Positions 20,437 through 42,102 are shown, counted from the stretch's first letter. The stretch is DNA of 64,000 nt from Escherichia coli (GCF_044324875.1 NZ_CP172185.1), one strand, 5' to 3'. Translations and numbers: made by a program. The notes: generated by a model not told the origin, from the letters alone.

Positions 20437-20452
20437 TAATAATGGAGGCGTC

Positions 20453-22182: not shown

Positions 22183-22353
22183 TTCCTGAACTTCAGAATC
22201 ATCTTGCTGCTGCTTCGATTCAGCAAGGATAAAGGGTATGATAGTGAAAAGGGATAAAAGCATTGTCATCTGCGGCAGCTATGAGTAATGTTGGCCCTAA
22301 CGAATAGCGGTTGCTTAAACGAATCCGACTCTCACATTATCAGGGGTATAAAA

Positions 22354-22683
22354 ATGGAAACTACCAAGCCTTCATTCCAGGACGTACTGGAATTTGTTCG
22401 TCTGTTCCGTCGTAAGAACAAACTGCAACGTGAAATTCAGGACGTTGAGAAAAAGATCCGTGACAACCAGAAGCGCGTCCTGCTGCTGGACAACCTGAGC
22501 GATTACATCAAGCCGGGGATGAGCGTTGAAGCAATCCAGGGCATCATCGCCAGCATGAAAGGTGACTATGAAGATCGTGTTGACGATTACATCATCAAAA
22601 ATGCCGAGCTCTCCAAAGAACGCCGCGATATCTCCAAAAAGCTGAAAGCTATGGGCGAAATGAAAAACGGCGAAGCGAAGTAA
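22354..22683 (+). CDS. yeeX: DUF496-family protein YeeX
   Basis: [56 protein letters not shown]... (109 aa). Confidence 0.88.
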
Positions 22684-22783
22684 TTCCTGTTTTATTCAAT
22701 GAGGGTTGCCCGGCAACCCTCATTGCTCATTGATTCTTTTCTGTGTATCAAAGTCATCATTCCCATCTGATAACCTATCGAAA

Positions 22784-23227
22784 TTAGCGACAGACATCTT
22801 CTGTATGCAGCAAGGCAAAAAGTTCTGTAACTCCATTGTTATTAACCGCACTGGTTACTAACACGTTGTGCGCTCCAGCTTCCCGTAACCAACATTTCAC
22901 CAAAGATATTTGTTCCATGCTGGCTAAATCTGCTTTGGTTACTACTCCAATGACCGGGCGATTCATTGACGAGGTAAAGCCTGGCGAAAAAGGGGACCAC
23001 GGTGCGTCCGCATTAAGCATCAGGGCGATAATGTCCGCTTCGCAGGCGCTGACCAACAATGCTCTGTAGAGGCTGCGGTTTTCGAGGTATTCGCCTGGTG
23101 TATCAATGGTGGTCGGGGACCAGACGATTGCCTGCGTTTTCTGATAATGAATATTTTCGCCACGCAGACATTGCGTGAGCGACGTTTTTCCGCACTGGCT
23201 GGGGCCGATGAGCATCATACGTTGCAT
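22784..23227 (-). CDS. pduV: EutP/PduV-family small GTPase
   Basis: 147-aa ORF with P-loop [10 protein letters not shown]; last gene of the pdu cluster. Confidence 0.85.
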
Positions 23228-23231
23228 AACG

Positions 23232-23582
23232 TCAGGTCCGCGTAATGGGGCAGGCGGTAAAGCGCATCATTTCACCCAGCGTACGGGTAACCTGGCTAAG
23301 TGCATATTCAATCGCAGAAACATCACCAGTCAGCACTACGGCACCGGTAAAACGATCAAGAAAACCGATCTCTACAGCGCCTGATTTTGTGGCGATATCA
23401 CATGCGATGATAGATGCTTCGCTGGGGGTAATTGTCAGAATGCCAATAGCAGAAACGGTGTCTGGTAAACCCAATTTCTTAAACAGATCCTTCCCTGGAT
23501 TGGCGATGACATGTGCCAGCGTGACCTGCTTACCAGGGACATATTCCTGAATCATCCGTTCAGTTGTGTGCTGAGTTGTCAT
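23232..23582 (-). CDS. pduU: microcompartment shell protein (circularly permuted BMC domain)
   Basis: ORF ...[80 protein letters not shown]... Confidence 0.85.
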
Positions 23583-24136
23583 TATCCCTCCACCATCTGA
23601 CGCCACATGGCTTCATGTGGACGGGCAATCACCGACCGATAGACCAACAAACCTTTTTCTCCCGCACGCTCGCTGGCGACAGAGACCGCGTTATTAACAT
23701 CTGAAATATCGCCAGCAACCACCATGTAGCATTTACCGCCAATGCCAAAAGCCATATGCACGCGAACAAGAATGACATTCGCAGCTTTGACAGCACAATC
23801 GGCAGCGTCAATGCAGGCGGCGACACTCCAGGTTTCGACTACGCCGACAGCCCGGTGCTGTTCAACTTGGTTCAGTCCGCTGATTGCAGAAAGGATGCTG
23901 GGATGAATATTCGGCAGGACAAGACTGTCGACCAGCATTTCACCAGCAAGGGAAGCACCGCTGTTGATGGCCTGTTGCACCGCGCCCACATCGCCACCGA
24001 GCATCAGCAGAAATTTTCCGGGGCATAGCGTTTTGCTGACCAGTAACTCAACGTTGGCGCTTTTCAGCATGGCGTCGCCGGTTTCCATCCCTTTCGCGAT
24101 ACTGCTAAGTTCTAAAATACCTACCGCTTTCGACAT
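23582..24136 (-). CDS. pduT: microcompartment shell protein with tandem BMC domains
   Basis: 184-aa [35 protein letters not shown]... with two BMC repeats. Confidence 0.85.
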
Positions 24137-24138
24137 CG

Positions 24139-25482
24139 TTAACCTCTCACAAGCGTAATCGCGTTTTCTGTCACATCGCTGACCATGCCATCAATACTGG
24201 CATGAATGGGGGCACCTAATGTGCCGTGTGGAATTTGACCTACACATTGCCCATGAACGACGCGATCGCCTTTTTGTACACACGCAATTGCGCTGGCACC
24301 GATGTGCTGGCGTAACAATAACGTCACTTTTTCGGTCTGAGGCACCTGTTCAGACAATGGCGCATCCTGATACCACGGGGTTAAGCCCAGTCTGGTTACC
24401 AGCCGTTTTACGGGAATCAGTCGATAATTTGCCATGGGATCTGCAGGATTTAAGGTACCTTCGTAACGGAGATTTTGTGCGCGTAATTCCTGCTTAAGCA
24501 GGCGGTTTATGCGCATTGGTGAAATTCCTACCGGACAGGCGACGCTGGCGCAGACGTTGCACTCCGAACAGGTGAGCGCCGTCAGTAACAGTTGTGGCGT
24601 AGCGAGCTGTTGGTAGTTAACCGCACGTACTAATAAATGGGGTGCCAGTTCGTGACCGATTAAATGACGTGGGCAGAGATCGGTACACAAGCGGCATTGC
24701 TCACAAACAGTTTTCGCGACGGCAAGTACGCTGCGGTCATTCTGCATTCGACATTGGATCAGTGAATGAGAGTTGGGTAAAACCAGCAAGCCGCCAGTGG
24801 TTTTGCTGACTGGTGTGTCGAGCGATGTGATCAAACTGCCCATCATCGGTCCGCCATTGATAAAACCAGGAGCATCCACTGTTGCGCCGCCCGCCAGCGC
24901 CAGGACTTCACGTAAAGACATGCCGATGGGGACGGTTACCGTTATTGGTTTCGCCACTGCACCATTAACGGTGAGTGTGCGGCGCGTCACTGGATACTGT
25001 TGCTCGACGGCTCTGGCAATATTAAGTACGGTTTGAACATTATTGACCACCACACCGACGCTAACGGGTAATGCAGCGGGTGGAACGCGGCGACCAGTTG
25101 CCATCCAGATGGTCAGCACTTCGTCTCCTGCGGGGTAAACATCGGGCAAAATATGCAGGCGGATATCCGGTGGTAACAGTGGTGTGAGTGCGTTTATTGC
25201 CAGTTGATATTTCTCTTTCAGCGCGATGATTCCGCTGCTGGCCCCGGTGGCTTTCATCGCATAGTGAACACCGCGAAGCAGGCGGCTGGCTTGCTGCGCC
25301 ATTAACTGTTGATCCACTTTCAACATGGGTTCGCATTCCGCCGCATTCACCAGGAAAGTGTCAACACGCGCTTGTAGCTTAATATGGGTTGGAAAACCTG
25401 CGCCGCCAGCACCCACGACACCAGCTGCCTGTACTCGCTCGCGGATGGTCTGGTCGTCGCAGGAGGTTAACTCGACGTTCAT
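24139..25482 (-). CDS. pduS: cobalamin reductase (RnfC-like flavoprotein with 4Fe-4S clusters)
   Basis: 447-aa ORF with a GAGGAGFP nucleotide motif and two CxxCxxCxxxCP ferredoxin motifs. Confidence 0.85.
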
Positions 25483-26591
25483 AACAACTCCTCGAGCAGT
25501 TCTGCAATAGCGGTGGCATCAGCCGCACGCGGGTTGGTACGCAACGTTGCATCCGCCAGTGCCGCCTGAACCATATCTGGTATGCGTATTGACCATTCTG
25601 CTTTTTTTTCTTTCAGCACATTGGTAAGAGTCGGTAGCTTACAGGTTGTTTTAAGCTGTTCAATATGTTGAATAAGTGTATTCAGGCTGGCGGTGTCATT
25701 GGCGTTGTCCGGGCATAAATGGCACGTTTTCGCCAGCCGGGCGTAGCGTTTGGCAGCGCGCGGATCGCCAGCATTAAAGCGGATAACCGCCGTGAGCAGG
25801 AGCGCATTCGCCAGGCCGTGTGGCAGATGAAACTGTCCGCCGAGTTGATGAGCAATTGCATGGTTTAATCCCAGTCCAGCCTGGCTAAAGGCCATTCCTG
25901 CAAGTGTCGATGCATTATGCATTTTGCCACGGGTAGCGAGACAATCGCCTTTCTTCACTGCAGTGGGCAGGTATTGAAAAACAATTTGCACGGCTTTTTC
26001 GACCAGTGCATCCGTGAAGTCGCTGGCGCGGGGAGAAACATAAGCTTCAAGCGCATGGGTTAAAACATCCATCCCGGTATTGGCCGTTATCGCCGGTGGC
26101 ACGCTGACGACCAAAGATGGATCAAGGATCGCGATATCCGGATAAAGTGCATTATCGAAAAGGGGATATTTAATCCCTTTCTCAGGATCGCTGATGACAC
26201 AAGCACTGGTCACTTCGGAACCGGTACCGCTGGTGGTGGGAATGGCTACGCAGGTTTCAATTTCAATGCCACACTGGCGACCGAACCAGACAATTGCTTT
26301 TGCGGCGTCCAGGGCAGAACCGCCGCCAAAACCGATAACTACATCCGGGCGTAAAGTCTGCATTTGCGCAATGCCTTTCACCACGGTCTGGATAGTTGGG
26401 TCGGGCGTTATTTCGCTAAAAATACTGAGACGATTACTGTCGGGCAGCGCCTGATGCAACGTGTCAATAAGTGGTGAGCGTGCCAGAAAGGCATCGCAAA
26501 TAATCCAGATGTGTCTATGAGAGAAACGGCTAAGTACCTTGAGACTTCCTGGTCCGCTGTATAAACGCGTCTGCAGTGAAAAAGTATTCAT
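25479..26591 (-). CDS. pduQ: iron-containing alcohol dehydrogenase (1-propanol dehydrogenase)
   Basis: 370-aa ORF with the Fe-ADH GGGS motif (GFGGGSALDAAKA). Confidence 0.85.
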   Translation of the reverse strand: MNTFSLQTRLYSGPGSLKVLSRFSHRHIWIICDAFLARSPLIDTLHQALPDSNRLSIFSEITPDPTIQTVVKGIAQMQTLRPDVVIGFGGGSALDAAKAIVWFGRQCGIEIETCVAIPTTSGTGSEVTSACVISDPEKGIKYPLFDNALYPDIAILDPSLVVSVPPAITANTGMDVLTHALEAYVSPRASDFTDALVEKAVQIVFQYLPTAVKKGDCLATRGKMHNASTLAGMAFSQAGLGLNHAIAHQLGGQFHLPHGLANALLLTAVIRFNAGDPRAAKRYARLAKTCHLCPDNANDTASLNTLIQHIEQLKTTCKLPTLTNVLKEKKAEWSIRIPDMVQAALADATLRTNPRAADATAIAELLEELL

Positions 26592-26601
26592 TTCCGTTTC
26601 T

Positions 26602-27987
26602 CTAGCGAATTGAAAAGCCGCTGGTTAACACGCAGCGTCGTGAGCGGGCAAAAGTCCGTGCTGACGTTGTCCCTTCTCCGGTCGGTGTTGCAATGGTAAA
26701 GGTCGTAAAGCCTTCGCCGCCGACGCCAATACCCGCCCAGGAGGGGCCGTTTTTGACAAAGATTGAGGTTTGCATAACGCGTGCGGCAAGGTTGAGCCGT
26801 GAGACGTTCTGCGAGTGCATAATTGCCGTGTGGTGCAAGCCGTCTTCCACTTTCAGCGCCAGGGTGAGAGCGCTATCAAAATCGTTGACCTTCACAATGG
26901 GCAGCATTGGCATCAGTTGTTCACAAGTAACCCAACTATCATTGGCGTCGACAACAGCAATCAGTAGGCGCGGCGCTTTTGCGGGCAAAGGGAGGCCTGC
27001 CGCTTCCAGCAAGGCTGATGGGCTTTTCCCAACCAGTTTTTTGTTGGCGCTACCGTCTGGCAGGCAAATTGCACGCAATTTCTCCGTTTGCTCATAGTTA
27101 AGAAGAAGCGCGCCAAAACTTTGCATCTGCTGAATTAAATAATCTGCCACTGATGCCACGACAATCAGGCTTTTTTCAGCAATACACGGCAGGTTGTAAT
27201 CAAATGAAGCGCCGTTGATGATGTCCTCGGCGGCTTTCACAATATCCGCCGTTTCATCGACGATGCACGGAGGGTTACCCGCTCCGGCACCAATCACTTT
27301 CTTGCCACTTTTCATTCCCATGGCGACGATCCCCGGACCGCCGGTAATCGCCAGAACGCTGATTTTAGGGTGCGCCATCATCTGTTCGGTAGCAGCAAAG
27401 GTCGGTTCAGATACGGTAACGATCAGGTTATGAATGCCACTACAACGAAACGCGATGTCTTCGATTGTGGTAATCAGTTTTAACGAAACGTATTTGGCTC
27501 CCGGGTGTGGACTGAAGTAGACGCTATTACCTGCTGCCAGCATGCTGATGCTGTTGTTAATGATGGTTTCCGTGGGGTTGGTGCTTGGCGTGACCGAGCC
27601 AATAACCCCAAACGGGGAGTATTCAAACAAAACCATGCCACCATCACCGGTTAGTGCAGTGGTGGTTAAATCTTCAATTCCTGGCGTGTTATCGAGTGCC
27701 GCTTTGTTTTTTAGGTACTTATCTTCTTTATTTCCCATCCCCGTTTCTTTGGCGCTTTCTTCTGCCAGTTCGGTCAGGCGGGGTATTAATTCTTCGCGAA
27801 TGGCGCTGATAATGGCGCTACGGGTTTTAAGCGGGCACTGTTGAAAGCGTAAAAAGGCCTGGTGTGCTGCGCAGACCGCTTCATCAACAGTCTGGAAAAT
27901 AGCGTTTCTTTGCGCTCGTTGCGTAGCGGGGGCAAGCTGCTCACGCAGAATATTGCGGATCAGTGTTTCTAATTCAGAGTTATTCAT
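26602..27987 (-). CDS. pduP: CoA-acylating propionaldehyde dehydrogenase
   Basis: 461-aa aldehyde dehydrogenase-family ORF with an N-terminal encapsulation-like helix; position in the pdu cluster. Confidence 0.85.
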   Translation of the reverse strand: MNNSELETLIRNILREQLAPATQRAQRNAIFQTVDEAVCAAHQAFLRFQQCPLKTRSAIISAIREELIPRLTELAEESAKETGMGNKEDKYLKNKAALDNTPGIEDLTTTALTGDGGMVLFEYSPFGVIGSVTPSTNPTETIINNSISMLAAGNSVYFSPHPGAKYVSLKLITTIEDIAFRCSGIHNLIVTVSEPTFAATEQMMAHPKISVLAITGGPGIVAMGMKSGKKVIGAGAGNPPCIVDETADIVKAAEDIINGASFDYNLPCIAEKSLIVVASVADYLIQQMQSFGALLLNYEQTEKLRAICLPDGSANKKLVGKSPSALLEAAGLPLPAKAPRLLIAVVDANDSWVTCEQLMPMLPIVKVNDFDSALTLALKVEDGLHHTAIMHSQNVSRLNLAARVMQTSIFVKNGPSWAGIGVGGEGFTTFTIATPTGEGTTSARTFARSRRCVLTSGFSIR

Positions 27988-28991
27988 TGGTTTACTCCCA
28001 CGTTAATTGCCGCCATTGCGCTTTGGGCAATATCCATGTCTTGTTCAACGCTACCACCGCTGATGCCAAGCCCCCCGAGCAATATTCCGTCACGCCAGAG
28101 GGGGAAGCCGCCACCAAAGGTGACGACTTTGCCTTGCATATGGCTTTCGAGCCCATAAAGCGGCGCGCCGGGTTGCACGGTATCAGCAAGCTTGTGGGTT
28201 GCTGTTTTCATCGCCACGGCGGTCCAGGCTTTTTTCGGTGCCAGTTCACTGCTGACCAACAGGGCATCAGGCATCCGCCAGGTAACACTTTCTGTTCCGT
28301 TGGCATCAACAATGCTGATGACAACGGGAATATGCAGTTCATCCGCGCGCATTGCCGCACTACGAATGAGCTGGTGAAGATCCTGAAATGTGAGCGGCAT
28401 TGTGCGTTCCTTCAATGCTGGTGTGTGGTTGGCTTCGTGATAACGTTTTGTGATTTCCTGAATCATCAGGTTTTGATGAGCAACGTTGTCTTCCACTCGG
28501 GCGAGGGCATACAGGCAATCGGAAAGTCGGTTGATATAGTGCAGCAAAACATTCCGGACGTTGGTTTCCGTTGTCAGTTCAACCAGACGTCTTTCAGCCC
28601 GTCGAGCCACTGTGCGGGCGAAATGCATGTGGCTTGCGGCTTCAGATCGACCAGGCAGAATGAAGCTGTGAACTGGGGGGACGGCGTTCATTGCGCTATC
28701 GATCGCGTTTTCCAGCGCAGCAATTTCTTCCGTACTGATGTAACGCTGCTTCGCTGACGGCTGTTCGCTTTCACTCGCGAGTTCGGCGCTAAACCAAAAT
28801 ATCTGTTGTTGAATGGCTTCCAGTAAGATGCGATGGCTTTCGATGGCGGTGGCGCAATAACACAGACTGAGTGTCGCGTTCAGTTCATCCAGCGTGCCAT
28901 AGGTTTCGACACGTAGATGAGTTTTGCTGACGCGCTGTCCGGTAAATAAAGACGTACTTCCTGAATCACCTGTTCGGGTATAAATTGCCAT
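27984..28991 (-). CDS. pduO: ATP:cob(I)alamin adenosyltransferase (PduO-type) with C-terminal DUF336 domain
   Basis: 335-aa ORF MAIYTRTGDSGSTSLFTGQRVSKTHLRVETYGTLDELNA... Confidence 0.88.
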   Translation of the reverse strand: MAIYTRTGDSGSTSLFTGQRVSKTHLRVETYGTLDELNATLSLCYCATAIESHRILLEAIQQQIFWFSAELASESEQPSAKQRYISTEEIAALENAIDSAMNAVPPVHSFILPGRSEAASHMHFARTVARRAERRLVELTTETNVRNVLLHYINRLSDCLYALARVEDNVAHQNLMIQEITKRYHEANHTPALKERTMPLTFQDLHQLIRSAAMRADELHIPVVISIVDANGTESVTWRMPDALLVSSELAPKKAWTAVAMKTATHKLADTVQPGAPLYGLESHMQGKVVTFGGGFPLWRDGILLGGLGISGGSVEQDMDIAQSAMAAINVGVNQ

Positions 28992-29002
28992 CTTTCAGCT
29001 CC

Positions 29003-29278
29003 TTAGCGCGAAAGCGTATCGACAATGCCGACCACTGCCAGGTCGATGGCCTCATTAGGGCCGGAAAACACATGTCTGGCGCTGGAACCACTGCTGAGGA
29101 GTACCAACTCACCAACGCCTGCGCCGACTGAATCAACGGCAACTTCGTCGCCGGTTAATGGCGTGAGAGGCAGTTCGCCGTCAGCACTGACCCGGCGAAC
29201 CAGCAGCAGTTTTTTCCCGATCAGAGATGGTGATTTTTGCGTGGATACTACCGCGCCAGTGACTCGAGCCAGATGCAT
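29003..29278 (-). CDS. pduN: microcompartment vertex (pentamer) protein, EutN/CcmL family
   Basis: 91-aa [33 protein letters not shown]... Confidence 0.85.
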
Positions 29279-29281
29279 AGG

Positions 29282-29773
29282 TTACTCCTGCCTGATTAAC
29301 TGAATATTTCGGGTAATTGCCGCTTCACGAGCCAGTGCGGTCACACAACATTTCCGCTGTAACACCAATATTCCCGAGCTTAACTGTGCGATATCGACAT
29401 AACTTAAAAGTCGATCATGATGTAGGTAGATCGGTTGCCCTTGTTCGTCGCACCAGCTTAGCGGTAGACGGGCGAGAGTCTTCAATTCAATGGCGTTCAG
29501 GAAATGACGCTGCAACGACAATTGAATGTGCATTCCCCAGGCTAACGCTTCGTGTATCTGGATTGCTGCTCGATCTGACGTTTCGTTCTCCGCAAGTTGT
29601 CGCAGCAGCGGCAGATCGACATATCGGATTTGTAATGACGCATACTGATGAACGCTCTCTTGAACACTGGCGTCTCGCAGTTGAAAAACAGTCAGCACGA
29701 GTGTTTTTCCCGCACGTTGTTTAAGGCGAAAAACCACTTCGTCAACAATACGTTGCATCAGTATGTTATTCAT
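29282..29773 (-). CDS. pduM: microcompartment structural protein PduM
   Basis: 163-aa ORF between pduL and pduN; assignment by operon order. Confidence 0.7.
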   Translation of the reverse strand: MNNILMQRIVDEVVFRLKQRAGKTLVLTVFQLRDASVQESVHQYASLQIRYVDLPLLRQLAENETSDRAAIQIHEALAWGMHIQLSLQRHFLNAIELKTLARLPLSWCDEQGQPIYLHHDRLLSYVDIAQLSSGILVLQRKCCVTALAREAAITRNIQLIRQE

Positions 29774-30402
29774 GGCATTGACACCAGTGTGGCAAAAACG
29801 TCAGGGCTATCAGCCCCTGCGGCGTTGGCCTCATCGGTATCAATATGCATTTCAAGACGCATATCCGGAGAGACGCGAACAGCGACGTTTTCGAATATCA
29901 GTCGTCGCTCATCACCTTCAATGGCAACCGCCACTTTATCGCCATGCGTAACGCCATAAATCAGGGCATCCAGCGGAGACATATGAATATGCCGTTGCGC
30001 GACAATGACGCCAGATGTGATCTCCAGTTCCGCAAATGGACTTATCAAACGAATCCCCGGAGTGCCGCTGAGATCGCCTGACATGCGTAGCGGGGCGGTG
30101 ATCCCTAACGTTCTGGCGTCCGTCCGGGAAATTTCCACCTGACTTGCATTGCGTAGCGGCCCCAACAAGCGAACGTTGTGCAATTTACCTTTTGGTCCCT
30201 CCAGCGTAACAACCTGTTCAGCAGCGAATTGGCCAGGTTGCATTAACGGCTTTTTCTCGCTAATCGGTTGTTCAGGAAAAAGACGCAAATAATCCGCTGT
30301 TGAAAGATGAATATGACGACTGGAAACACCCAGAGGGATAGGGCGCTCACGCATCTCATCCAGAATCTGGCTCACTGTTTCCTGCAAGGTTTGTTTATCC
30401 AC
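29770..30402 (-). CDS. pduL: phosphate propanoyltransferase
   Basis: 210-aa ORF MDKQTLQETVSQILDEMRERPIPLGVSSRHIHLSTADYLRLF... Confidence 0.85.
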   Translation of the reverse strand: MDKQTLQETVSQILDEMRERPIPLGVSSRHIHLSTADYLRLFPEQPISEKKPLMQPGQFAAEQVVTLEGPKGKLHNVRLLGPLRNASQVEISRTDARTLGITAPLRMSGDLSGTPGIRLISPFAELEITSGVIVAQRHIHMSPLDALIYGVTHGDKVAVAIEGDERRLIFENVAVRVSPDMRLEMHIDTDEANAAGADSPDVFATLVSMP

Positions 30403-30404
30403 TG

Positions 30405-30827
30405 CTACTCCCCTCGCTTATTGGTGTGCAGGCAAAGTGAGCGGGGCTCACCTTTTTGCCGCTGACATGCCGGGTCAAGACACAAATTACAACTGATAAT
30501 CTCTGAGGTGACGGTTGTTGCTGGTGTTTCGCTTGTTTCAACCGTCCCAGTCAATGCTTCAGTTGTGTGGGGCAGAATGCCGTCTCCCGGGCGGGCAATT
30601 ACTTTGTGTGCGACAAGGCCATTTCGCTGTCCGGCGAAACTGGCTCCCGTCGCGATCGCCGCATTAACCGAGGCGACGTCACCGGTGATTTTGATGAGCG
30701 TCCAGCCTGAGCCATTGGTCTTCTCAAGGCCAACCAGCATGATAGACGCGGCTTTTGCCATAGCGTCTGCGCAACTGATAGCGAGTGCCAGACCACTGAC
30801 TTCAAGTAATCCCAGTGATTGCTTCAC
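30405..30827 (-). CDS. pduK: microcompartment shell protein with C-terminal Cys-rich extension
   Basis: 140-aa ORF; N-terminal BMC domain MKQSLGLLEVSGLALAISCADAMAKAASI... and a C-terminal tail with CxxC-type cysteines. Confidence 0.8.
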   Translation of the reverse strand: MKQSLGLLEVSGLALAISCADAMAKAASIMLVGLEKTNGSGWTLIKITGDVASVNAAIATGASFAGQRNGLVAHKVIARPGDGILPHTTEALTGTVETSETPATTVTSEIISCNLCLDPACQRQKGEPRSLCLHTNKRGE

Positions 30828-30850
30828 GCTGTGCTCCTTAGCGAATGGGG

Positions 30851-31126
30851 TTATGCCGATTTAGGTAAAATAGCCTCAACATCACTGTGTGGGCGTGGGA
30901 TGACATGGCAGGATTTAACTTCGCCAACGGCGCTTGCCGCAGCGCTCCCCGCATCAACGGCGGCCTTTACTGCGCCAACATCACCGCGGACCATCACCGT
31001 AATCAGACCCGAACCAATCTTTTCATAGCCAACCAGCTGCACGTTGGCGGATTTAACCATGGCATCTGCAGCTTCAATTGCGCCAACTAACCCTTTTGTT
31101 TCAACCAGTCCTAGTGCGTTGTTCAT
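30851..31126 (-). CDS. pduJ: major microcompartment shell protein (BMC-H)
   Basis: 91-aa [59 protein letters not shown]... Confidence 0.88.
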
Positions 31127-31145
31127 ACTGCGTTTCTCCTGTGGA

Positions 31146-31496
31146 TTATGAGTGGAATTCCCGGAAGGGAATTCCTTTTACCAGGCGGGCAGCGTTAGTG
31201 CCGATGCTGCGCCGGGCATGGTTATCTTGTTGATACATCAGCGTAAACAGTGGCGCTGATGCTGGTAAGTTTTTGTAATGCACAATCAGTTTTTCCTGAT
31301 CGCAGGCAATGCCAACCAACAGGGGAGATTGACGAGCAGCCAGCCAGGCGCTATCGATAACTTCACCTGACGGAATGTGTTGAATGCGAAAGGGAATACC
31401 TTCCTCTTCAATGCCAAGAAGCACCTCATCCCATGTAGTGATACAGTCACCGATCTCCATGACGACGATGGCTGGTGCACGCTCTTTACCTTCCAT
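31146..31496 (-). CDS. pduH: diol dehydratase reactivase small subunit
   Basis: 116-aa ORF immediately downstream of pduG; operon order. Confidence 0.8.
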
Positions 31497-33318
31497 GAAT
31501 CGACTCCTTGTGCCAGGCGATGAGGAGCCCAGTAGCTACCGCATTGCGCGGACCTTCGCTACCACGGATATTCCCCCGCCCGGCGACCAGTCGATAATGT
31601 GCCAGCGCGTCGGTGACCAATTGCGGTACTTCGAAATCCAGCGAAGAGCCACCCACCAGAACGACAAACGGAATGTCGCGAATATTTCCGGCAGGGCTTA
31701 CCTGACGTAGCGCGCGCAGGGAATTAGTTACGAAGACACGCTCTTTCGCACTGCGACGGACAGCGCGTACTTTTTCCAGCGTCAAATCACCGGGAATAGG
31801 CACCAGTTCGTCGGGTTTCACTACACAGACGCGGGCAAATACATGGGGGGATAGGGGAGTAGGGAAGAACTGAACGCTGCCATCTTCATGGCGTAAGTGG
31901 AACAGGCTTTCTACTTTTGCCAACGGGTACTTTTTGATTTCTTCTGCCAGATAACGATCATTTAAGCCCAGCTCACGAGCGATAATCATCGTTACCATGT
32001 CGCCCGCTCCCGCAAGGTGAGTGGCAACAATTTCTCCTTTCTGATTGATGATGGAGGCATCGGTAGAGCCTGCACCTAAGTCCAGAATTGCCAGTGGACG
32101 TGTGGTTCCAGGGGTAGTCAAGGCCCCCTGAATGGCGGCTTCTGCTTCTGCGCCTCCGACCTGAACATCAACATGCAGTTTTTGCTTAATTTCACTGGCG
32201 ATCATTGCCATTTGCAGACGGTCGGATTTCACCATAGAGGCAATACCCACAGCCTGTTCCAGTGAAAATTCACCTGCCAGGCCGCCGGTTACGCTGACGG
32301 GGACAGAGGTATCTATCGCCAGCAAATCCTGAATAAAAATTTCGTTGCTGGGTTTGTTGGTCAGTTCCGCCATGGTCTGGCGAACATGTTCCAGCATTCC
32401 GCCGATGTTGGTGCCTGGTTCTCCCGTCACGTTTTCCAGTTTTGGGCACTCACCGACCGCTTTCATAATGGCATCGGCACCAGCAGCTACATCAACGCGC
32501 GTTGTGCGCCCGGCAGAAAGCAGTTCGATATTTCCGGCGGGTATCGAACGGGCTTTAACGTCGCCAGAAGGCGTTTTCACTACCACTGCTGAACGGTTGC
32601 CGATTAGCGCCCGCGCGACAGGAACAATATTTTTAGTCTCTTCAGCATTGAGGGCGAAAACGGTGGCAATCCCATACGGGTTAGACAGGGTTTCGATAAC
32701 TTTCCCGGGAACGGCAACTTCAATTGCAGCCAGCATGCCGAGCGGAATACGATCGATGTAGAGGACTTCATCAACAATAGGTACAGCAATTTCCAGGCGG
32801 TTACTGACCAGCACGCCATCGTCGCGTTGCAGAATAACGCCAGTCAGCTGATATCCGGCACGTACGGAGGCGTTTATCATCGTCGCGATATCGGCAAAAT
32901 CAAATGCCGATGACACCACCAGGATGTAAGGTGTGTCCGCCGGGCGTGTTAATAACTCTTGCGGAGTGATGGTGAGCCCTACGCCCAGCCCCACTCCGCC
33001 CGGAGTTTTCGGGTTGTGACCGATCATGGTTGATTCGGTGATGATGGTTTCAGTGATGGTTTCCATCGCCACATCACCAATGACCGGAGTTGCTTCGTTG
33101 ATACGAATAAGCGAAATATCGCTAACATTGATGCCGACTTTTTTCGTTGCCTGTGCGAGCGCCTCCTGAATACCATGGACGTTACGCAACGTACCTTTAA
33201 TTCCGGTGGTTTCCGCCAGGGCGCTACTCACGAACGACAACTCTCCAGTTGCACTGAGCGTTGCCAGCGCAATCTCTGTTGATGAGTTGCCGATATCAAT
33301 GCCTGCTATATATCGCAT
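31486..33318 (-). CDS. pduG: diol dehydratase reactivase large subunit
   Basis: 610-aa ORF MRYIAGIDIGNSSTEIALATL... (ASKHA/actin-like ATPase fold). Confidence 0.85.
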   Translation of the reverse strand: MRYIAGIDIGNSSTEIALATLSATGELSFVSSALAETTGIKGTLRNVHGIQEALAQATKKVGINVSDISLIRINEATPVIGDVAMETITETIITESTMIGHNPKTPGGVGLGVGLTITPQELLTRPADTPYILVVSSAFDFADIATMINASVRAGYQLTGVILQRDDGVLVSNRLEIAVPIVDEVLYIDRIPLGMLAAIEVAVPGKVIETLSNPYGIATVFALNAEETKNIVPVARALIGNRSAVVVKTPSGDVKARSIPAGNIELLSAGRTTRVDVAAGADAIMKAVGECPKLENVTGEPGTNIGGMLEHVRQTMAELTNKPSNEIFIQDLLAIDTSVPVSVTGGLAGEFSLEQAVGIASMVKSDRLQMAMIASEIKQKLHVDVQVGGAEAEAAIQGALTTPGTTRPLAILDLGAGSTDASIINQKGEIVATHLAGAGDMVTMIIARELGLNDRYLAEEIKKYPLAKVESLFHLRHEDGSVQFFPTPLSPHVFARVCVVKPDELVPIPGDLTLEKVRAVRRSAKERVFVTNSLRALRQVSPAGNIRDIPFVVLVGGSSLDFEVPQLVTDALAHYRLVAGRGNIRGSEGPRNAVATGLLIAWHKESIHGR

Positions 33319-33327
33319 AGTTCGTCC

Positions 33328-33846
33328 TTAATCGTCGCCTTTCAGTTTTTTGCGCTCGACATAAAGCTCCGCAGCTTCACGGACAAATGCAGCACAAATT
33401 TTGGCCTGATAACGCCGTTCAAGATCGTCAGCAATGGCAATAAGTTCTTGCTTAGTCGAACGATAAGGGCGTAACGCATTGTAGATTTCGAGGATGCGAT
33501 CATCCGGTACTGAGGTAAGCTCAGCGGCGCGTTCAAAATTCATCGCCAGGCGATCGCGACCAGCATCTCTGGCAATCGCGGCCTGAATACGCAATGTTTC
33601 AGGGGTTATACGCATATCCTGGGCGGTGACGTTATCGCTGAGTACATTTTCCAGAGTGAAATCGTCGAGCGTTTTATTGGTCGCCGTTTTAACCCATTCC
33701 GGATGTTTATTTGCCAGCGGATAATCCGTCACTTTGGCGCTCTGTATTGATGCGTTGGGGACCGCAGAAACAGAAGCTGCATCCTGTAAACTGTTCATGC
33801 GGTTCAACACGTCCCTGACCATCGACTCAATTGCATCGGTATTCAT
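33328..33846 (-). CDS. pduE: propanediol dehydratase small (gamma) subunit
   Basis: 172-aa ORF following pduD; operon order. Confidence 0.85.
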   Translation of the reverse strand: MNTDAIESMVRDVLNRMNSLQDAASVSAVPNASIQSAKVTDYPLANKHPEWVKTATNKTLDDFTLENVLSDNVTAQDMRITPETLRIQAAIARDAGRDRLAMNFERAAELTSVPDDRILEIYNALRPYRSTKQELIAIADDLERRYQAKICAAFVREAAELYVERKKLKGDD

Positions 33847-33860
33847 GAAGATTTCCTTTG

Positions 33861-34529
33861 TTAAAACGTCACGCGCAGTTCTTGCGGTTTTTTGCCAGTG
33901 ACCACGTACTTCGTCTCTTTGATATGCAAAATGGCAGATTTAGCCTGGTATTTCGGCCGCGCCATTTGATCGTTGAGGGTCGGCACCGGTTGTGGAGACT
34001 CACGCTTTGCATAACGCGCGGCGTTTTTGCCAATCTGACGATAAGTTTCCAGCGTCAACAAAGGCGCTTGAGGGAATAGTTCCAGGTTAGACAAGGGAGG
34101 AAGACCCTGCTGGTGGATAACCGTTGTGCCTTTCGACTGAATACCGATAGCAATACCTGAACCACTAAGACGATCGCCTTCGACTGCTACGAATGCGACA
34201 TCGGACGATTTAAAGCAGCGAATCACACGGGCTTTAATGCCTTCTTCTTCGATACCAGCAATCACTTCGCGCAAGATGTTTTTATGCGGAATACCGATGA
34301 TATTGACGGTTTGCGCCAGGCCGAACGCCGGGCCTACAGCAATAATGACTTCATCTTGCTGAGTGCCTTGTTGGGCTTCGCCAATTTCGGTCAGAAAAGT
34401 TCCGGTATCTGGCGCGGAAGAGACAGTTGCACAGGCAGGTGCGCGAAATGAAACGGGCTTGTCGCTGGTTTGCATTTCTGCCAGCACGTCTTCGATAATC
34501 TGACGCAGTAATTTTTCGTTAATTTCCAT
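33861..34529 (-). CDS. pduD: propanediol dehydratase medium (beta) subunit
   Basis: 222-aa [22 protein letters not shown]... with an N-terminal encapsulation helix. Confidence 0.85.
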
Positions 34530-34538
34530 TTCTCACCC

Positions 34539-36203
34539 TTAGTCAATTTCGTTGGGATCAAGTGCACCGGGAATATTTTTGATCTCTTCCCAGCGTTCCC
34601 CTTGCAGGCGGTAACCTGTAGCCGGTCCGGCGTAATCATTGATGTCATTGACCGCTGAGAGCACTTGTCCGTCATCGACGATGATGGCTGAGGTATGGAG
34701 ATAATCGCCGGTCAGTTTTGCTTTTTGCATGTTGAGCATGTCCTGGGCGACATCGGTAAAACCGCCTTGCGCCAGGGCTTTCACCACTTCCAGGCTGTTA
34801 CGGTTTTTATTGATAATCTCCTGGGCGAACTTGATGTCTTCCACAATATTGCGCTCAGGCATATCTTTCGAACCGTGGGCATAGGTTGCCGCTTCGACTT
34901 CTTCATCGGTAATAGGCGGTAGTCCCATACCGGCAAAGACAGCCTGTAAAGCGCGAGCGGCTTTATTGCGGATAGCGATAACATCTTCTTCGCGTACTGG
35001 TCGCAGCCCGCCATCAACCTTCAGGTCACGCTGAATGACGTTGTAATCATCGAAGTCTTCAGCATCTTCGTTTGAACCAGCAAACATGTTGTCGTAGTTC
35101 GGCACAGCGGAAAAACCGGAAGAGATAAAGTCGGTACCTGGCAGAAACTGCATCAGGAAACGTGCGGTACGGCGCATATCCGAGTGGGTAAAGGTCTGGT
35201 CATTACTGGAAGCGCATTCCAGATCCAGCGATGAGCAAATTAAGTTTTCCGCTAATACTGCGCGGATGCCTGATGGCACAGCCGATGGGACACCGATGCA
35301 GCTTACCGAACCATTCTGCAGACCCTGAACGCCTGCGGCTTTAGTGATGTAAATGCAACGAGCCTCGAGATAAAGCATTGATTTGCCTTCCGCGTAACCC
35401 ATCTGTACTTCTGAGCCGGAGCCGGAAGTAAAGCGCATTTTTAAGCCGCGAGAAGCATAAGATGACGCGAGAAACCCTTTTGACCACGGGGTATCATCGC
35501 CATCGGTGAAAACAGGTTCTGTACCATAGACAGAAATTGTTTCGGCGTAACAGGTGTGGCCTAACATACCGAGTTTCAGTTCGGTGGCTTCTTCCAGTGA
35601 ACACTGGGTCAAGACGCCCGGACGTCCCACCTGTGAGCCGACCAGCAGGGCGATGGCGTTGAACGGTGCATAGCGAGCAACGGCAACGGTGGTTTCCTGT
35701 TCATCAAACCCGCGCCATGCGCCTTCAGCTGCGTCGGCGGCAATTTGTACCGGGTTATCTTTAACGTTGGTGACGTGAGCCTGTTGTGATGGTGTTCGAC
35801 GGGCGCGCATTTTCTGCATCGCCATCATCATCTCTACCACGTTCATCTGCGAAACCACTTCGACGATTTTTGCAGGCGTCATTGCTGTGGTAAGGGGAAC
35901 GATATCGCTACGTTTGACATTTGGATCGCACAACATATTGGCAAGTTTTACCGAATCCATCGCGATGACTTCTTCGGCGCGAGCGAGATTGATGCCGTAG
36001 CGGGCGATAAAGTGGTCGATCAGGTCAAACTGGCTGGCGGGTTTTCCATCCAGTTCGGTAACGACGCCGTTAACAATTTTGATTGACGGTTTAGGATCGT
36101 TCGGGCTTTCCATCGCAATGAAGCCTTCTTCAATCCACTCTTTAACGAAACCGTCCTGGTTGACCGGGCGTTTTGCCAGTGCTTCAAATCTTTTCGATCT
36201 CAT
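34539..36203 (-). CDS. pduC: B12-dependent propanediol dehydratase large (alpha) subunit
   Basis: 554-aa ORF MRSKRFEALAKRPVNQDGFVKEWIEEGFIAMESPNDPKPSIKIVNG... Confidence 0.9.
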   Translation of the reverse strand: MRSKRFEALAKRPVNQDGFVKEWIEEGFIAMESPNDPKPSIKIVNGVVTELDGKPASQFDLIDHFIARYGINLARAEEVIAMDSVKLANMLCDPNVKRSDIVPLTTAMTPAKIVEVVSQMNVVEMMMAMQKMRARRTPSQQAHVTNVKDNPVQIAADAAEGAWRGFDEQETTVAVARYAPFNAIALLVGSQVGRPGVLTQCSLEEATELKLGMLGHTCYAETISVYGTEPVFTDGDDTPWSKGFLASSYASRGLKMRFTSGSGSEVQMGYAEGKSMLYLEARCIYITKAAGVQGLQNGSVSCIGVPSAVPSGIRAVLAENLICSSLDLECASSNDQTFTHSDMRRTARFLMQFLPGTDFISSGFSAVPNYDNMFAGSNEDAEDFDDYNVIQRDLKVDGGLRPVREEDVIAIRNKAARALQAVFAGMGLPPITDEEVEAATYAHGSKDMPERNIVEDIKFAQEIINKNRNSLEVVKALAQGGFTDVAQDMLNMQKAKLTGDYLHTSAIIVDDGQVLSAVNDINDYAGPATGYRLQGERWEEIKNIPGALDPNEID

Positions 36204-36221
36204 AAATCTGCCTCAGAAAAT

Positions 36222-37034
36222 TCAGATGTAGGAAGGGCGATCGTTTTTCGGTGTATCGCCGAGAGTCGAAAGCACGGTTTTACCGATTTCGCGTGCGGAG
36301 ATGACCGCCTGGCGGACTGCGCCGGAGTCACCCGAGATAATCAGAATGACTTCATTGCTGTAGCTGGTGCCTTGCGCGGGGGAGCTGTATGCCACAACAT
36401 CCACATTGGCGGACTTCAGCGCGGTGTCTGCCATCAGAACACCCACCGCAGCCGGAGCGCCGACAATAACGCCGCAAGCCCGTCCCAGTGGAGCGCCAAA
36501 CGCTTTTTCCAGTGCATAGCTGGCGCGGGCGGTATATTGCAGTTCAAGATGTCCGGCTTCGTTGGCATAGACATCGCCAAAGGTTCGATCGAGTTCTTTC
36601 AGGGCAACTTCAATACCGCGTTTCACGTCGGAAACATCGTTGCCACCTAAGAGGATCAATGAGCCGTGTCCGGCACCGCCTTTAGTATCGCGAGGAAGTT
36701 CAATGCTAATAACTTCAGTATTGGTTGCTTTTACCGCTTCATCAGCGGCCATAATGTGTGGACCTGCGCCAATACGCGCACCCAGAATGCCAATGGAACG
36801 ATAGCGTTTTTCAAGTTTCATTGCGTCCAACAGGGCGCTATCAACGTTCGCAATGACCAGACCTACAGTGTCGCCAATAGCGGTGCCAACAAATTCTGTT
36901 AACGTGCAGCTTTTTTCTGCCATAGCCGTCTCTCGTATTTGATGAGTGGTTTTCGGGAGAACCTCATGCTCTGGCGTCGCTACGCGAGCGATGACCTGCG
37001 CCATGATCTGTTCGACCAGTTCATTGCTGCTCAT
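36222..37034 (-). CDS. pduB: microcompartment shell protein (tandem BMC, BMC-T)
   Basis: 270-aa ORF upstream of pduC; tandem BMC domains. Confidence 0.85.
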
Positions 37035-37315
37035 GGGTTAATTCCCTTTGGTAAGATTTTTTCGACATCGGTATGTGGGCGGGGAATAACGTGCACGGCT
37101 TTTACTTCGCCGACGTTACGCGCAGCTGCGGCACCTGCGTCTGTTGCCGCTTTTACCGCCCCGACATCACCACGAACGATGACGGTCACCAGCCCGGAAC
37201 CTATTTTTTCGTAGCCGACCAGCAAAACATTTGCCGACTTCACCATGGCGTCTGCGGCCTCTATGGCGGCAGTTAAGCCTTTGGTTTCTACCATTCCTAA
37301 CGCTTCTTGTTGCAT
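37031..37315 (-). CDS. pduA: microcompartment shell protein (BMC-H), first gene of the pdu operon
   Basis: 94-aa [60 protein letters not shown]... Confidence 0.9.
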
Positions 37316-37826
37316 AAAGACCTCGCCTGGATTTTTTTGACGATATGACTATAAAAAAAAGCGAGGAAAAAGAATGGCTGACTTAATCGGCTAATGAGAA
37401 AAATTAATAGAGAACAAATATTATAAAATTGCTTTTATGAACTATATGTTGTTAATTTATTAGTTGTTTTGTGGATATTTCAATGTGAATTAATTGCGTT
37501 GGCTAGTGAGTTTAATCGCGAGTAATATTTTGTGGGGGGGTGTTCGAGGAAGGAACTGTGATATTTGTTTCAATTTTATTATGTCATGATGGCAATTTTT
37601 TATTATAAAAGTTTGGCGGTAATTATTACTTTCAACACTGATTAACGCTGTGTTGCATGATTCGGTAATGACAATAATTTGTTATGTTAGCACGATTTTT
37701 ACACGAGTCTGTCATGCATGTTAGCAATATTTTCTGCAGAGCAATTTTTTATAGTTGCGCTCGATATATACAACAATCAGCGCATAGTTGGCTGATAAAG
37801 AAAAACTCCGTAAAGAAGGTGTCACT
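37316..37826. promoter_or_regulatory. divergent pduA / pduF control region
   Basis: A 510-bp AT-rich intergenic region between divergent pduA and pduF. Expected from Salmonella knowledge to carry PocR-dependent promoters; individual sites not resolved here. Confidence 0.5.
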
Positions 37827-38636
37827 ATGAATGATTCACTCAAGGCGCAATGCGTTGCCGAGTTTTTGGGCACCGGACTGTTCCTCTTTTTTGGCATTGG
37901 TTGTTTGTGCGCCCTGAAACTTGCCGGGGCAAGTCTGGGACTGTGGGAAATTTGTATCATTTGGGGGTTAGGGATTTCGCTTGCTGTTTACCTTACGGCA
38001 GGTATTTCCGGCGCTCATCTCAACCCGGCAGTTACCATTGCTCTGTGGCTGTTTGCCTCTTTCCCAGCCCGTAAAGTGCTGCCATTTTGTGTGGTGCAAT
38101 TAGCGGGTGCCTTTGGTGGTGCGGTTCTGGCATATTTTCTCTACAGCAGTTTGTTTACCGATTTTGAATCTGCTCACAATATGGTGCGTGGTAGTGCAGA
38201 AAGTTTACAACTCGCCAGTATCTTCAGTACTTATCCGGCAGCGGCGATTAATGTATGGCAAGCTGCGTTGGTCGAAGTGGTCATAACGTCCATGTTAATG
38301 GGGTTGATTATGGCGTTGACCGATGACGGTAATGGCGTACCCAAAGGACCGCTTGCGCCTTTACTTATTGGTATTCTGGTTGCTGTTATTGGTGCTTCTA
38401 CCGGACCATTAACCGGTTTTGCCATGAATCCAGCGCGTGATTTTGGACCTAAAATTTTCACCTGGCTTGCGGGTTGGGGGGAAATTGCGATGACTGGTGG
38501 ACGCAATATTCCTTATTTCATTGTACCCATTATTGCACCGATCATTGGCGCATGTGTTGGTGCGGCGATTTATCGCTATCTCATTGCAAAGAATTTACCT
38601 GTCAATAGTGTTACACCTAAAGAAATCAGCGAATAA
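37827..38636 (+). CDS. pduF: propanediol diffusion facilitator (MIP/aquaglyceroporin family)
   Basis: MNDSLKAQCVAEFLGTGLFLFFGIGC... with two NPA motifs (HLNPAVT and MNPARD). Confidence 0.88.
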   Translation: MNDSLKAQCVAEFLGTGLFLFFGIGCLCALKLAGASLGLWEICIIWGLGISLAVYLTAGISGAHLNPAVTIALWLFASFPARKVLPFCVVQLAGAFGGAVLAYFLYSSLFTDFESAHNMVRGSAESLQLASIFSTYPAAAINVWQAALVEVVITSMLMGLIMALTDDGNGVPKGPLAPLLIGILVAVIGASTGPLTGFAMNPARDFGPKIFTWLAGWGEIAMTGGRNIPYFIVPIIAPIIGACVGAAIYRYLIAKNLPVNSVTPKEISE

Positions 38637-38838
38637 CGAAATAATCTGGCAGCTATAAACGTTTATTTTTTTACTGTTTGTGATCTGCTTTCCGAACTTA
38701 TTAAAAAGTCTCCCGCTTCACGGAGGCTTTTGTTATTGTCCTTTGTGCTTCTCGTCAGTAAATCATCAGGGATGATGTGAAGATTAAATGTAAAACAATT
38801 GTTTTGCTATAACAATAAATTAACTGGGAGGTTTTATC

Positions 38839-39753
38839 ATGATTTCTGCGGCGACACTTAATTCAGAACTCATTAATAAAATCGCGCAGGATTTTGCGCA
38901 GGCGACCAGCCTTGCGGTTGTCGTGGTCAATATTCACGGCGATGAAATTTCCGAGCTGTTTAACTTCACTCCATTTTGTCAGATGATGCGGCAACACTCT
39001 CAGCTTAGCACTCGATGTCGCATGAGCGATCGTTGTGGGGGCCTGGAAGCCTCTAAATCCGATCAGCCTTGTATTTATCGCTGTCATGCCGGATTAACCG
39101 ATTTCTCTATTCCACTGGTAATCGCCGGACATTTAGTTGGTTTTGTATTGTGCGGGCAAGTTCGTCTGCGTAATGATGATGTCGATTTGGTCGATATTCT
39201 GAATGTCGATGATTGCTGGCAGGCAGATCCCGAATTACTTAATGAATTTCGCAAAGTCCCTGAGATGGATTACTCAAGAGTTATGGCCTCTGCTGATTTG
39301 TTGAAGTTGATTGTGGAAAATTGCCTCAAAAAACAACTCAATTTTGTTGTTATTAAAGAGAACAAATTTCAGTCAGATTCGGTGCGCCAGACTCGTGCGC
39401 CTAATCCCCACGACAATAAAATGAAAAAAGCTTTACGCTATATTGATGCGCATTTATCAGACGATTTGCGTCTGGAAGATGTCGCCTCGCACGTTTATCT
39501 AAGCCCTTATTATTTCAGCAAGTTATTTAAGAAATACCATGGGATTGGGTTTAATGCGTGGGTAAACCAACAACGGATGGCCAGCGCTCGTGAGTTACTG
39601 TGCCATAGTGACTGGAGCATCGCCAGCATTGCGCGTAATTTAGGTTTTTCGCAAACCAGTTATTTTTGCAAAGTTTTCCGTCAGACTTATCAGGTTACGC
39701 CGCAGGTGTATCGGCAGCAAGTGAATGAAAATGCGGCGATGGAAACGGTATAG
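38839..39753 (+). CDS. pocR: AraC-family regulator of pdu/cob genes
   Basis: 304-aa ORF with a C-terminal AraC helix-turn-helix; position after pduF. Confidence 0.85.
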   Translation: MISAATLNSELINKIAQDFAQATSLAVVVVNIHGDEISELFNFTPFCQMMRQHSQLSTRCRMSDRCGGLEASKSDQPCIYRCHAGLTDFSIPLVIAGHLVGFVLCGQVRLRNDDVDLVDILNVDDCWQADPELLNEFRKVPEMDYSRVMASADLLKLIVENCLKKQLNFVVIKENKFQSDSVRQTRAPNPHDNKMKKALRYIDAHLSDDLRLEDVASHVYLSPYYFSKLFKKYHGIGFNAWVNQQRMASARELLCHSDWSIASIARNLGFSQTSYFCKVFRQTYQVTPQVYRQQVNENAAMETV

Positions 39754-39869
39754 AGTAAATGCCAAAAAAAAGGAAGGTTTAAATAAACGCTGGAATGAAT
39801 AATTAACGTTATTTACGTGTTATGGGAAAAGTGAAATCAGCTCATAACATACGCTGACAGGTGTGGCAC

Positions 39870-40080
39870 ATTTGTGCCAGGGAAGAGGGTGAAAATCCCT
39901 CGCAGCCCCCGCTGCTGTAATGCTGACAAACCCGAAAATGCCACTGATCGCGAGATTGGGAAGGTCGGGTGAGGATGACGCTAAGCCAGAAGACCAGTCT
40001 GTCAGTCAATACCAACAACTTCGGTGGGAAGTGGGTTGCCCGGAAGCGTCCGGTAGAGTACTGGCGCGTCTTTATACCCC
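39870..40080 (+). promoter_or_regulatory. cobalamin (B12) riboswitch; boundaries approximate
   Basis: Contains the conserved riboswitch blocks ggtgaaaatccc, cgcagcccccgctgctgtaa, gccactg, gggaaggtcgg and the B12-box-like aagccagaagaccag. Confidence 0.65.
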
Positions 40081-40234
40081 TACCACCCTGAAAGGATCAG
40101 GGTATGGCGGCATCATTTAGTTCTTTCATCGCAGTGCCAACAGGCACCAGAGCTGCACTTAAGGTGTGGCAATCTTGTTTCATGGCTCATCAACCAGACC
40201 GCCATTACAGGAAACTAAGTGGAGGGCGAGGGAC

Positions 40235-40672: not shown

Positions 40673-40805
40673 TGGATTGAGAATGCTGGATTTTTAATTA
40701 TATTACGCGCAGTATTAATCGCGTAAATGTTTTGCGGTCAGCAACGGTGGGGGATCCATTGTTCTGTTCAATGAATACCATCATACAAATGAATCAGGAG
40801 TCGGT

Positions 40806-42091: not shown

Positions 42092-42102
42092 AGAGACGTG
42101 AC

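Follow-up and report, generated by a model that had tools for sequence, protein, structure and literature searches.

How has a complete propanediol-utilization (pdu) operon come to lie, in some Escherichia coli strains, where the K-12 chromosome carries the cryptic prophage CP4-44, and why does it end without pduW and pduX? In this work, we have analysed a stretch of 64 kb (64,000 nucleotides; hereafter the window) from E. coli (GCF_044324875.1, NZ_CP172185.1), in which positions 22684-39753 hold the operon and its regulator; the genome of this strain was seen only within the window, whose numbering all coordinates follow. Our results indicate that the whole region is, very probably, the Escherichia-type Pdu microcompartment locus, PDU1B, at the ancestral cob-pdu site between yeeX (tmaR) and cobUST.

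The open reading frame (ORF) map and a per-gene check show 19 uninterrupted ORFs on the minus strand, pduA to pduV (22784-37315), without internal stops, with gaps of -11 to +23 nt between neighbours and with Shine-Dalgarno-like sequences upstream of most of them. Divergent from them are pduF and pocR, both full length. The left flank consists of dacD, sbmC, yeeA and tmaR/yeeX, and the right flank of cobU, cobS and cobT. Genes were named by NCBIfam scans against the curated cut-offs and by the annotation that the Prokaryotic Genome Annotation Pipeline (PGAP) gives to a matching E. coli record. PduB, PduC, PduD, PduE, PduG, PduL, PduM, the N-terminal domain of PduO, PduP, PduU, EutP/PduV, PocR and the MIP-family facilitator all score above their cut-offs; PduA, J, K, T and N belong to the bacterial microcompartment (BMC) and EutN/CcmL shell families, PduQ to the Fe-alcohol dehydrogenases, and PduS is RnfC-like. 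A first-pass annotation of this DNA had described 19 collinear pdu genes with divergent pduF and pocR between yeeX and cobU, and the ORF map and the NCBIfam scans confirm it. From the last gene of the operon to the activator, the features are the following:

22784-23227, minus strand: pduV, EutP/PduV GTPase-like protein of 147 aa, last operon gene (TIGR02528, 184 bits against a cut-off of 138)
23232-23582, minus strand: pduU, EutS-type BMC shell protein (NF012012, 134 bits against 123; PGAP name pduU)
23582-24136, minus strand: pduT, tandem-BMC shell protein (TIGR02526 match; annotation)
24139-25482, minus strand: pduS, RnfC-like Fe-S flavoprotein, cobalamin reductase (TIGR01945, 254.9 bits against 246; Pfam Complex1_51K/RnfC_N in homologous loci)
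25479-26591, minus strand: pduQ, Fe-dependent 1-propanol dehydrogenase (Fe-alcohol dehydrogenase family matches; PGAP '1-propanol dehydrogenase PduQ')
26602-27987, minus strand: pduP, CoA-acylating propionaldehyde dehydrogenase, N-terminus MNNSELETLIRNILREQL (NF011927, 718 bits against 403)
27984-28991, minus strand: pduO, adenosyltransferase by its N-terminal domain match (TIGR00636, 164 bits against 108)
29003-29278, minus strand: pduN, pentameric vertex protein of the EutN/CcmL family (CcmL/EutN models)
29282-29773, minus strand: pduM (NF011957, 245 bits against 179)
29770-30402, minus strand: pduL, phosphate propanoyltransferase (NF011652, 255.8 bits against 209)
30405-30827, minus strand: pduK, BMC shell protein of 140 aa (BMC-domain matches; annotation)
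30851-31126, minus strand: pduJ, major hexameric shell protein (BMC matches; annotation)
31146-31496, minus strand: pduH, small subunit of the diol dehydratase reactivase (library scan and annotation)
31486-33318, minus strand: pduG, large subunit of the diol dehydratase reactivase (TIGR04491, 958 bits against 400)
33328-33846, minus strand: pduE, B12-dependent diol dehydratase (NF011971, 355 bits against 282)
33861-34529, minus strand: pduD, B12-dependent diol dehydratase (NF011616, 392 bits against 248)
34539-36203, minus strand: pduC, B12-dependent diol dehydratase (NF011979, 1073 bits against 788)
36222-37034, minus strand: pduB, shell protein (NF011944, 474 bits against 173)
37031-37315, minus strand: pduA, shell protein, start of the operon (BMC matches)
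37316-37826, unstranded: divergent pduA/pduF control region, by position
37827-38636, plus strand: pduF, MIP-family propanediol facilitator (TIGR00861, 223 bits against 171; start as in PGAP)
38839-39753, plus strand: pocR, AraC-family activator of pdu/cob (NF047788, 549 bits against 500)

This set holds the Pdu metabolosome's signature enzyme, the B12-dependent diol dehydratase PduCDE, together with its core (the acylating aldehyde dehydrogenase PduP, the alcohol dehydrogenase PduQ and the phosphotransacylase PduL), a cofactor maintenance set (the reactivase PduGH, the adenosyltransferase PduO and the reductase PduS) and a shell set made of PduA, B, J, K, T and U, on BMC models, and the PduN pentamer; the Pfam domains BMC and EutN_CcmL are recorded on identical shell proteins in homologous loci. 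According to the catalogue of Axen, Erbilgin and Kerfeld (2014, PMC4207490, supplementary text), the PDU1B type, which occurs in E. coli E24377A, LF82 and UMN026 and in Shigella sonnei, has, apart from PduX and PduW, homologues of the pdu genes of PDU1A, and encodes cobSTU, the rest of the cob operon not being co-localized; the absence of PduW from PDU1B loci is also stated in their main text. The window has 19 pdu genes without pduW and pduX, and cobUST adjacent without the rest of cob, in an Escherichia/Shigella host; the hallmark of PDU1A, pduW and pduX at the end of the operon with cbi genes adjacent, was not found. Nothing in the sequence contradicts the assignment to PDU1B. Since the same architecture has been catalogued under that name, the finding is already known, and both the CP4-44 interval and the missing pduW and pduX can be retrieved from existing annotation and the 2014 catalogue, without opening a new question.

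The pduV end of the operon is where pduW and pduX would be expected, and three features describe it:

22354-22683, plus strand: tmaR (yeeX), a core gene that converges on the pdu operon (NCBIfam TmaR/DUF496 above cut-off; tmaR in the matching E. coli record)
22684-22783, unstranded: spacer of exactly 100 bp from the yeeX stop to the pduV stop, site of pduW-pduX (~2.2 kb) in Salmonella/Citrobacter
22697-22725, unstranded: hairpin with a 13-bp stem and a 3-nt loop, folding on either strand (z = -4.9 on the pduV strand)

The stop codons of yeeX/tmaR and pduV lie at 22681-22683 and 22784-22786, respectively, so the claim that pduV ends at 22784, 100 bp from the yeeX stop, is borne out exactly. Equally sound was the claim that pduW and pduX are absent, which homologues elsewhere within the cluster would contradict: tblastn of the 64 kb with Salmonella PduW and PduX (from locus L029) found none at E<=1e-5, and noise only at E<=10. 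When the spacer was compared with eight pduV-to-yeeX intervals (blastn-short, word size 7), only chance-level matches to pduW and pduX were seen. As the spacer thus holds no detectable relic of either gene, the right-hand end of the deletion can be located only to the interval from the pduV stop to the hairpin. The stop of pduV overlaps the start of pduW in other genera; in Escherichia, the C-terminus of PduV departs from theirs beyond a conserved Cys, and the hairpin is reached after ~65 bp of unrelated sequence.

The palindrome reported at 22698-22724 is real, but extends slightly further, to 22697-22725. It is identical in K-12, where the 100-bp spacer is almost unchanged; its stem carries a compensatory G>A/C>T pair in Escherichia whittamii and is partly eroded in Escherichia albertii. 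Citrobacter, Pseudocitrobacter and Phytobacter have unrelated, non-homologous hairpins in the pduX-yeeX gap. No canonical T-tract follows the hairpin on either strand, and a simple terminator scan did not call it. From its position, its conservation and the one compensatory pair, we infer that it is a terminator, probably a shared, bidirectional transcript end of the convergent tmaR and pdu units.

The other end of the locus, beyond pocR, also differs from a full cob-pdu region, and contains:

39842-40016, plus strand: full-length cobalamin riboswitch (Rfam RF00174, 104.7 bits, E 1.4e-25)
40166-40672, plus strand: remnant ORF, 145/168 aa, with a segment like the CbiG N-terminus (NF004463, E 1.6e-17, far below cut-off)
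40806-43182, plus strand: cobU, cobS and cobT, nucleotide-loop assembly, cobinamide salvage (NCBIfam equivalogs above cut-off)

The riboswitch and the CbiG-like remnant are all that is found between pocR and cobU. Residues 24-141 of the remnant ORF match profile positions 1-125 of 351 in NF004463; a Pfam scan of the 168-residue ORF gave no match, and the CbiG assignment is a single sub-threshold NCBIfam match. Ten other E. coli contigs and E. whittamii have the same ORF, of 144/145 residues, between pocR and cobU, and in E. albertii TW07627 it stands beside cobS, with IS1 in place of pocR/pduF. The riboswitch appears to have once led into the cbi/cob operon and now precedes the remnant ORF and cobUST, and the CbiG-like ORF appears to be the scar of a deleted cbiA-cbiP, the sole part left. 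In pdu-positive strains cobUST would stay under B12 control; K-12 lacks the riboswitch.

What, then, has happened in K-12? An alignment of K-12 MG1655 2062000-2084000 with the window (blastn) shows matches to positions 17715-22966 and 40501-44569, the intervening 17.5 kb (22967-40500: pdu, pocR and riboswitch) being replaced by the 12.7-kb cryptic prophage CP4-44 with IS5H. The first-pass annotation had placed CP4-44 and IS5 at this position of K-12, and both the K-12 annotation and the alignment place them between cobU and yeeX; its broader claim of a complete pdu operon in the CP4-44 interval, devoid of pduW and pduX, is supported by the comparison with the Salmonella pdu operon and with pdu-positive E. 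coli. K-12 is not wholly pdu-free, since the last 183 bp of pduV (22784-22966) are still present. They belong to yoeF (b4538; locus L002, 16576-16932), a fusion ORF annotated as an uncharacterized protein. Its N-terminal half comes from the CP4-44 side, and 55 of its 61 C-terminal residues agree with the end of PduV. The K-12 yoeF is thus a pduV relic, and the K-12-type remnant carries the RefSeq label 'EutP/PduV family protein'. A search of the literature for pdu in combination with CP4-44 gave no result.

To follow the locus through the species, 5426 complete E. coli genomes were searched with the 18-kb locus as query, a carrier being a genome with at least 80% of the query in one place. Carriers number 637 (~12%, about one in eight), and the pduT-yeeA junction is present in 643 of the 5426 genomes. 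Among the matches listed, the identity over the whole 18 kb to full-length carriers is 97.4-98.8% (best 98.8%), and identity to E. coli chromosomes is 97-99% throughout; at the protein level, the Pdu proteins of the window are 97-100% identical to those of E. coli Z1323HEC0462 and 83-100% (most 86-99%) identical to those of E. whittamii and E. albertii. With 98.8% as the best full-length match, this very strain is absent from the genomes searched. Best identities of 97.6-99.3% had raised the possibility of another Escherichia species, but the protein identities mark the window as E. coli in the usual sense, or as Shigella, a genus absent from the collection. The other genomes among the matches listed match only a 283-bp yeeX-side and/or a 305-bp cobU-side remnant, and K-12 and nearly all of the pdu-negative E. 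coli in that set keep the 3΄ remnant of pduV and the cbi remnant. Plain deletions, without a CP4-44-type island, have removed window positions 22961-40622 in one genome (L083, NZ_CP182374.1) and 23083-40331 in another (L084, NZ_CP010169.1). As the breakpoints of these two genomes and of K-12 (22967-40500) all differ, the locus has been lost at least three separate times.

Some carriers are damaged within the locus. In one E. coli (locus L088, 14000-14640) pduG/pduH are missing, and E. albertii TW07627 (locus L096, 2500-4470 and 12500-16000) has an IS1 transposase in the place of pocR/pduF, a 52-aa stub of pduA, and broken pduO and pduQ that were not called. In a genome labelled 'Escherichia sp.' (L033), the closest counterparts of pduVWX are those of the Klebsiella loci, and the 10 kb covered downstream contain no yeeX.

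The comparison was extended to other Enterobacterales by an alignment scan with PduV, one genome per species, which gave 80 loci that were screened with PduW, PduX, YeeX and YeeA. In E. whittamii, in E. albertii and in two representatives labelled E. coli, yeeX and yeeA come straight after pduV; in ~50 other species, including Klebsiella, Yersinia and Hafnia, pduW and pduX come next, and in Citrobacter, Salmonella, Pseudocitrobacter, Phytobacter, Kosakonia, Intestinirhabdus and Entomohabitans pduVWX is itself followed directly by yeeX and yeeA. That the cluster might end with pduV throughout the Enterobacteriaceae, an outcome that would have spoken against the first-pass reading, is not so, given the ~50 species with pduVWX. 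Since these species keep the two genes and the site is orthologous, the absence of pduWX is a derived trait of the Escherichia lineage.

Identity of the Pdu proteins to those of Citrobacter/Salmonella is 54-100%, most 75-90%, and that of the flanking core proteins is 79-80% for YeeA, 74-75% for SbmC and 87-88% for DacD. Within the operon, PduM (54-56%), PduK (66-72%) and PduH (66-72%) have evolved much faster, PduC, D, E, G, J, N and U are 90-100% identical where tested, and PduJ is 98-100% identical across the Enterobacteriaceae. Because the Pdu identities lie in the range of the flanking core proteins, and the GC content of pdu (51.8%) is like that of the flank (50.6%), vertical descent fits. 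The pduV-yeeX junction and the cbi remnant ORF are found in E. coli, E. whittamii and E. albertii alike, which places the pduWX and cbi losses before the split of the three.

We propose that pduWX and the cbi genes would have disappeared, ahead of the divergence of E. coli, E. whittamii and E. albertii, from an ancestor with a pduV-pduW-pduX-yeeX arrangement like that of Salmonella and Citrobacter, and that the rest of the operon would have been lost later in most E. coli, in K-12 through replacement by CP4-44. On balance, we lean towards the pared-down PDU1B locus being ancestral to these three species, arising by a double pruning in situ (pduWX and cbiA-P) of a cob-pdu supercluster of the Salmonella/Citrobacter type, with the pdu-negative K-12 as one of at least three independent later erasures. 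On this view, the two prunings would have taken out precisely those genes that are foreign to the organelle and redundant or of no use to a B12 scavenger. Such an ancestral pruning followed by repeated erasure is plausible, and would be a modest point, probably not an original one. If true, it would favour vertical descent with piecemeal loss over absence from the common ancestor of E. coli and Salmonella and horizontal re-acquisition in Salmonella.

The opposite history would make the locus a recent genomic island that entered the yeeX-cobU interval of a minority of E. coli, with the K-12-like state ancestral and pduW and pduX never transferred. The low frequency of carriers, only ~12% of the complete E. 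coli genomes, speaks for it, and in the classic view, which Lawrence and Roth reportedly put forward in 1996, cob/pdu is horizontally mobile. We nevertheless consider an island very improbable: the pdu-negative genomes, K-12 among them, still have at this site the final 183 bp of pduV and part of the cbi remnant, the deletions have at least three different breakpoints, the locus is built alike and sits at the same place in E. whittamii and E. albertii, pdu occupies the orthologous yeeX-side position in Salmonella and Citrobacter, and Pdu divergence and GC content match those of the flanking core genes. Horizontal acquisition as an island was therefore rejected, being largely refuted by the pduV and cbi remnants in pdu-negative genomes.

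How might a locus pruned in this way work? PocR would activate the operon, PduF would admit 1,2-propanediol, and PduA, B, J, K, N, T and U (with PduM) would build a shell. Inside the shell, PduCDE would convert 1,2-propanediol into propionaldehyde in a B12-dependent reaction, and propionaldehyde would be turned into propionyl-CoA by PduP and into 1-propanol by PduQ; PduL would then form propionyl-phosphate, and PduGH, PduO and PduS would keep the cofactor active. The N-termini of PduD and PduP (MNNSELETLIRNILREQL) resemble the encapsulation peptides of Salmonella. The last step, from propionyl-phosphate to propionate and ATP, would be cytosolic, and with no dedicated PduW it may fall to its housekeeping paralogues, AckA and TdcD. 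Of the 5426 E. coli genomes, 5391 have tdcD, whose product shares 44% identity with Salmonella PduW. Conceivably, the passage of propionyl-phosphate through AckA/TdcD could also have consequences for protein acylation driven by acyl-phosphates. PduX is an L-threonine kinase of the aminopropanol arm of B12 synthesis. With the cbi genes deleted there would be no de novo B12 synthesis, and cobalamin or cobinamide would be salvaged through CobUST; since only this salvage is left, PduX may have become superfluous. In Salmonella, PduW and PduX are cytosolic and not components of the organelle (PMC7181861). The two genes dropped are thus those with cytosolic products in Salmonella, which makes this a clean example of an organelle locus trimmed to its core.

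A locus deprived of its own propionate kinase and of B12 synthesis could instead be a decaying relic, inactive in this strain. Its repeated loss in E. coli and the internal damage in the two carriers described above point that way, but we give this very little credence, as none of the 19 pdu ORFs, pduF or pocR is truncated here, sequences resembling ribosome-binding sites lie upstream, the N-terminal peptides of PduD and PduP are conserved, and identity of the proteins to their counterparts in another E. coli is 97-100%. Moreover, a published pdu-carrying strain grows on 1,2-propanediol in a pduC-dependent manner, the pduC deletion mutant of E. coli CUMT8 showing no growth (PMC9220930). The pdu genes are reported in ~50% of adherent-invasive E. 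coli versus 20% of the other strains; enriched in adherent-invasive strains from Crohn's disease, the operon enables these to use fucose-derived 1,2-propanediol in the inflamed gut (PMC4509574, PMC9220930).

Three points limit our interpretation. The proposed substitution of AckA/TdcD for PduW rests on paralogy and on Salmonella genetics, Palacios and co-workers reportedly having found in 2003 that AckA compensates pduW mutants. The putative link between the losses of pduX and cbi is a rationalization: both are ancestral to the clade, and either may have come first. The third is that the window covers only ~1.3% of a typical E. coli genome, which leaves room for pduW and pduX to have moved elsewhere instead of being lost, and a pduW-like gene does occur in a second cluster of one E. 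coli, strain 48, yet this explanation is less credible still than the island or the relic, because 5425 of the 5426 complete E. coli genomes, including the ~637 pdu-positive ones, lack DNA like Salmonella pduW-pduX at the sensitivity of blastn, and PDU1B genomes have been reported without both genes (Axen et al., PMC4207490). The pduW-like DNA of strain 48, a genome of 5.94 Mb from deer, lies at 5258950-5260130 of NZ_CP166879.1 and is 74.6% identical to Salmonella pduW; beside it lies a second pduV, of a foreign type, so that a PDU1A-type cluster gained by horizontal transfer is suggested.

Other elements of the window lie outside this argument. Between pduF and pocR, and antisense to both, there is an Rfam match to the enterobacterial small RNA STnc230 (38695-38778, minus strand; 74.8 bits, gathering score 50). 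Beyond cobUST, four tRNA-Asn(GUU) genes occur in 20 kb (44235-44310, 46643-46718, 48467-48542 and 63802-63877), interspersed with LysR genes of the nac/cbl type, yeeO, amn and shiA, and an ORF of 2896 aa with Ig-like repeats, of the yeeJ type, spans 54874-63564 on the minus strand; for this tRNA-Asn/yeeJ-type stretch, the top identity to any complete E. coli genome is 97.6%.

Set beside the known systems, the locus is closest to PDU1B, with which it shares the gene set, pocR and pduF, the adjacent cobUST and the absence of the rest of cob, and from which it differs in nothing of substance. With the K-12 CP4-44 interval (cobU-yeeH-IS5-...-flu-yeeRST-cbeA-cbtA-yeeW-yoeF-tmaR) it has in common the chromosomal interval itself, the flanks being shared up to 22966 and from 40501. 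The PDU1A locus of Salmonella enterica and Citrobacter freundii, pduABCDEGHJKLMNOPQSTUVWX with cbi-cob, has the same order from pduA to pduV, the same divergent pocR/pduF, the same yeeX-yeeA-sbmC-dacD side downstream and the same B12 riboswitch after pocR. In contrast to PDU1A, pduW (404 aa) and pduX (300 aa), ~2.2 kb together, are missing here, with ~65 bp of unrelated spacer instead, the PduV C-terminus differs after the conserved Cys, and the 17 cbi genes are reduced to the single CbiG-like remnant ORF.

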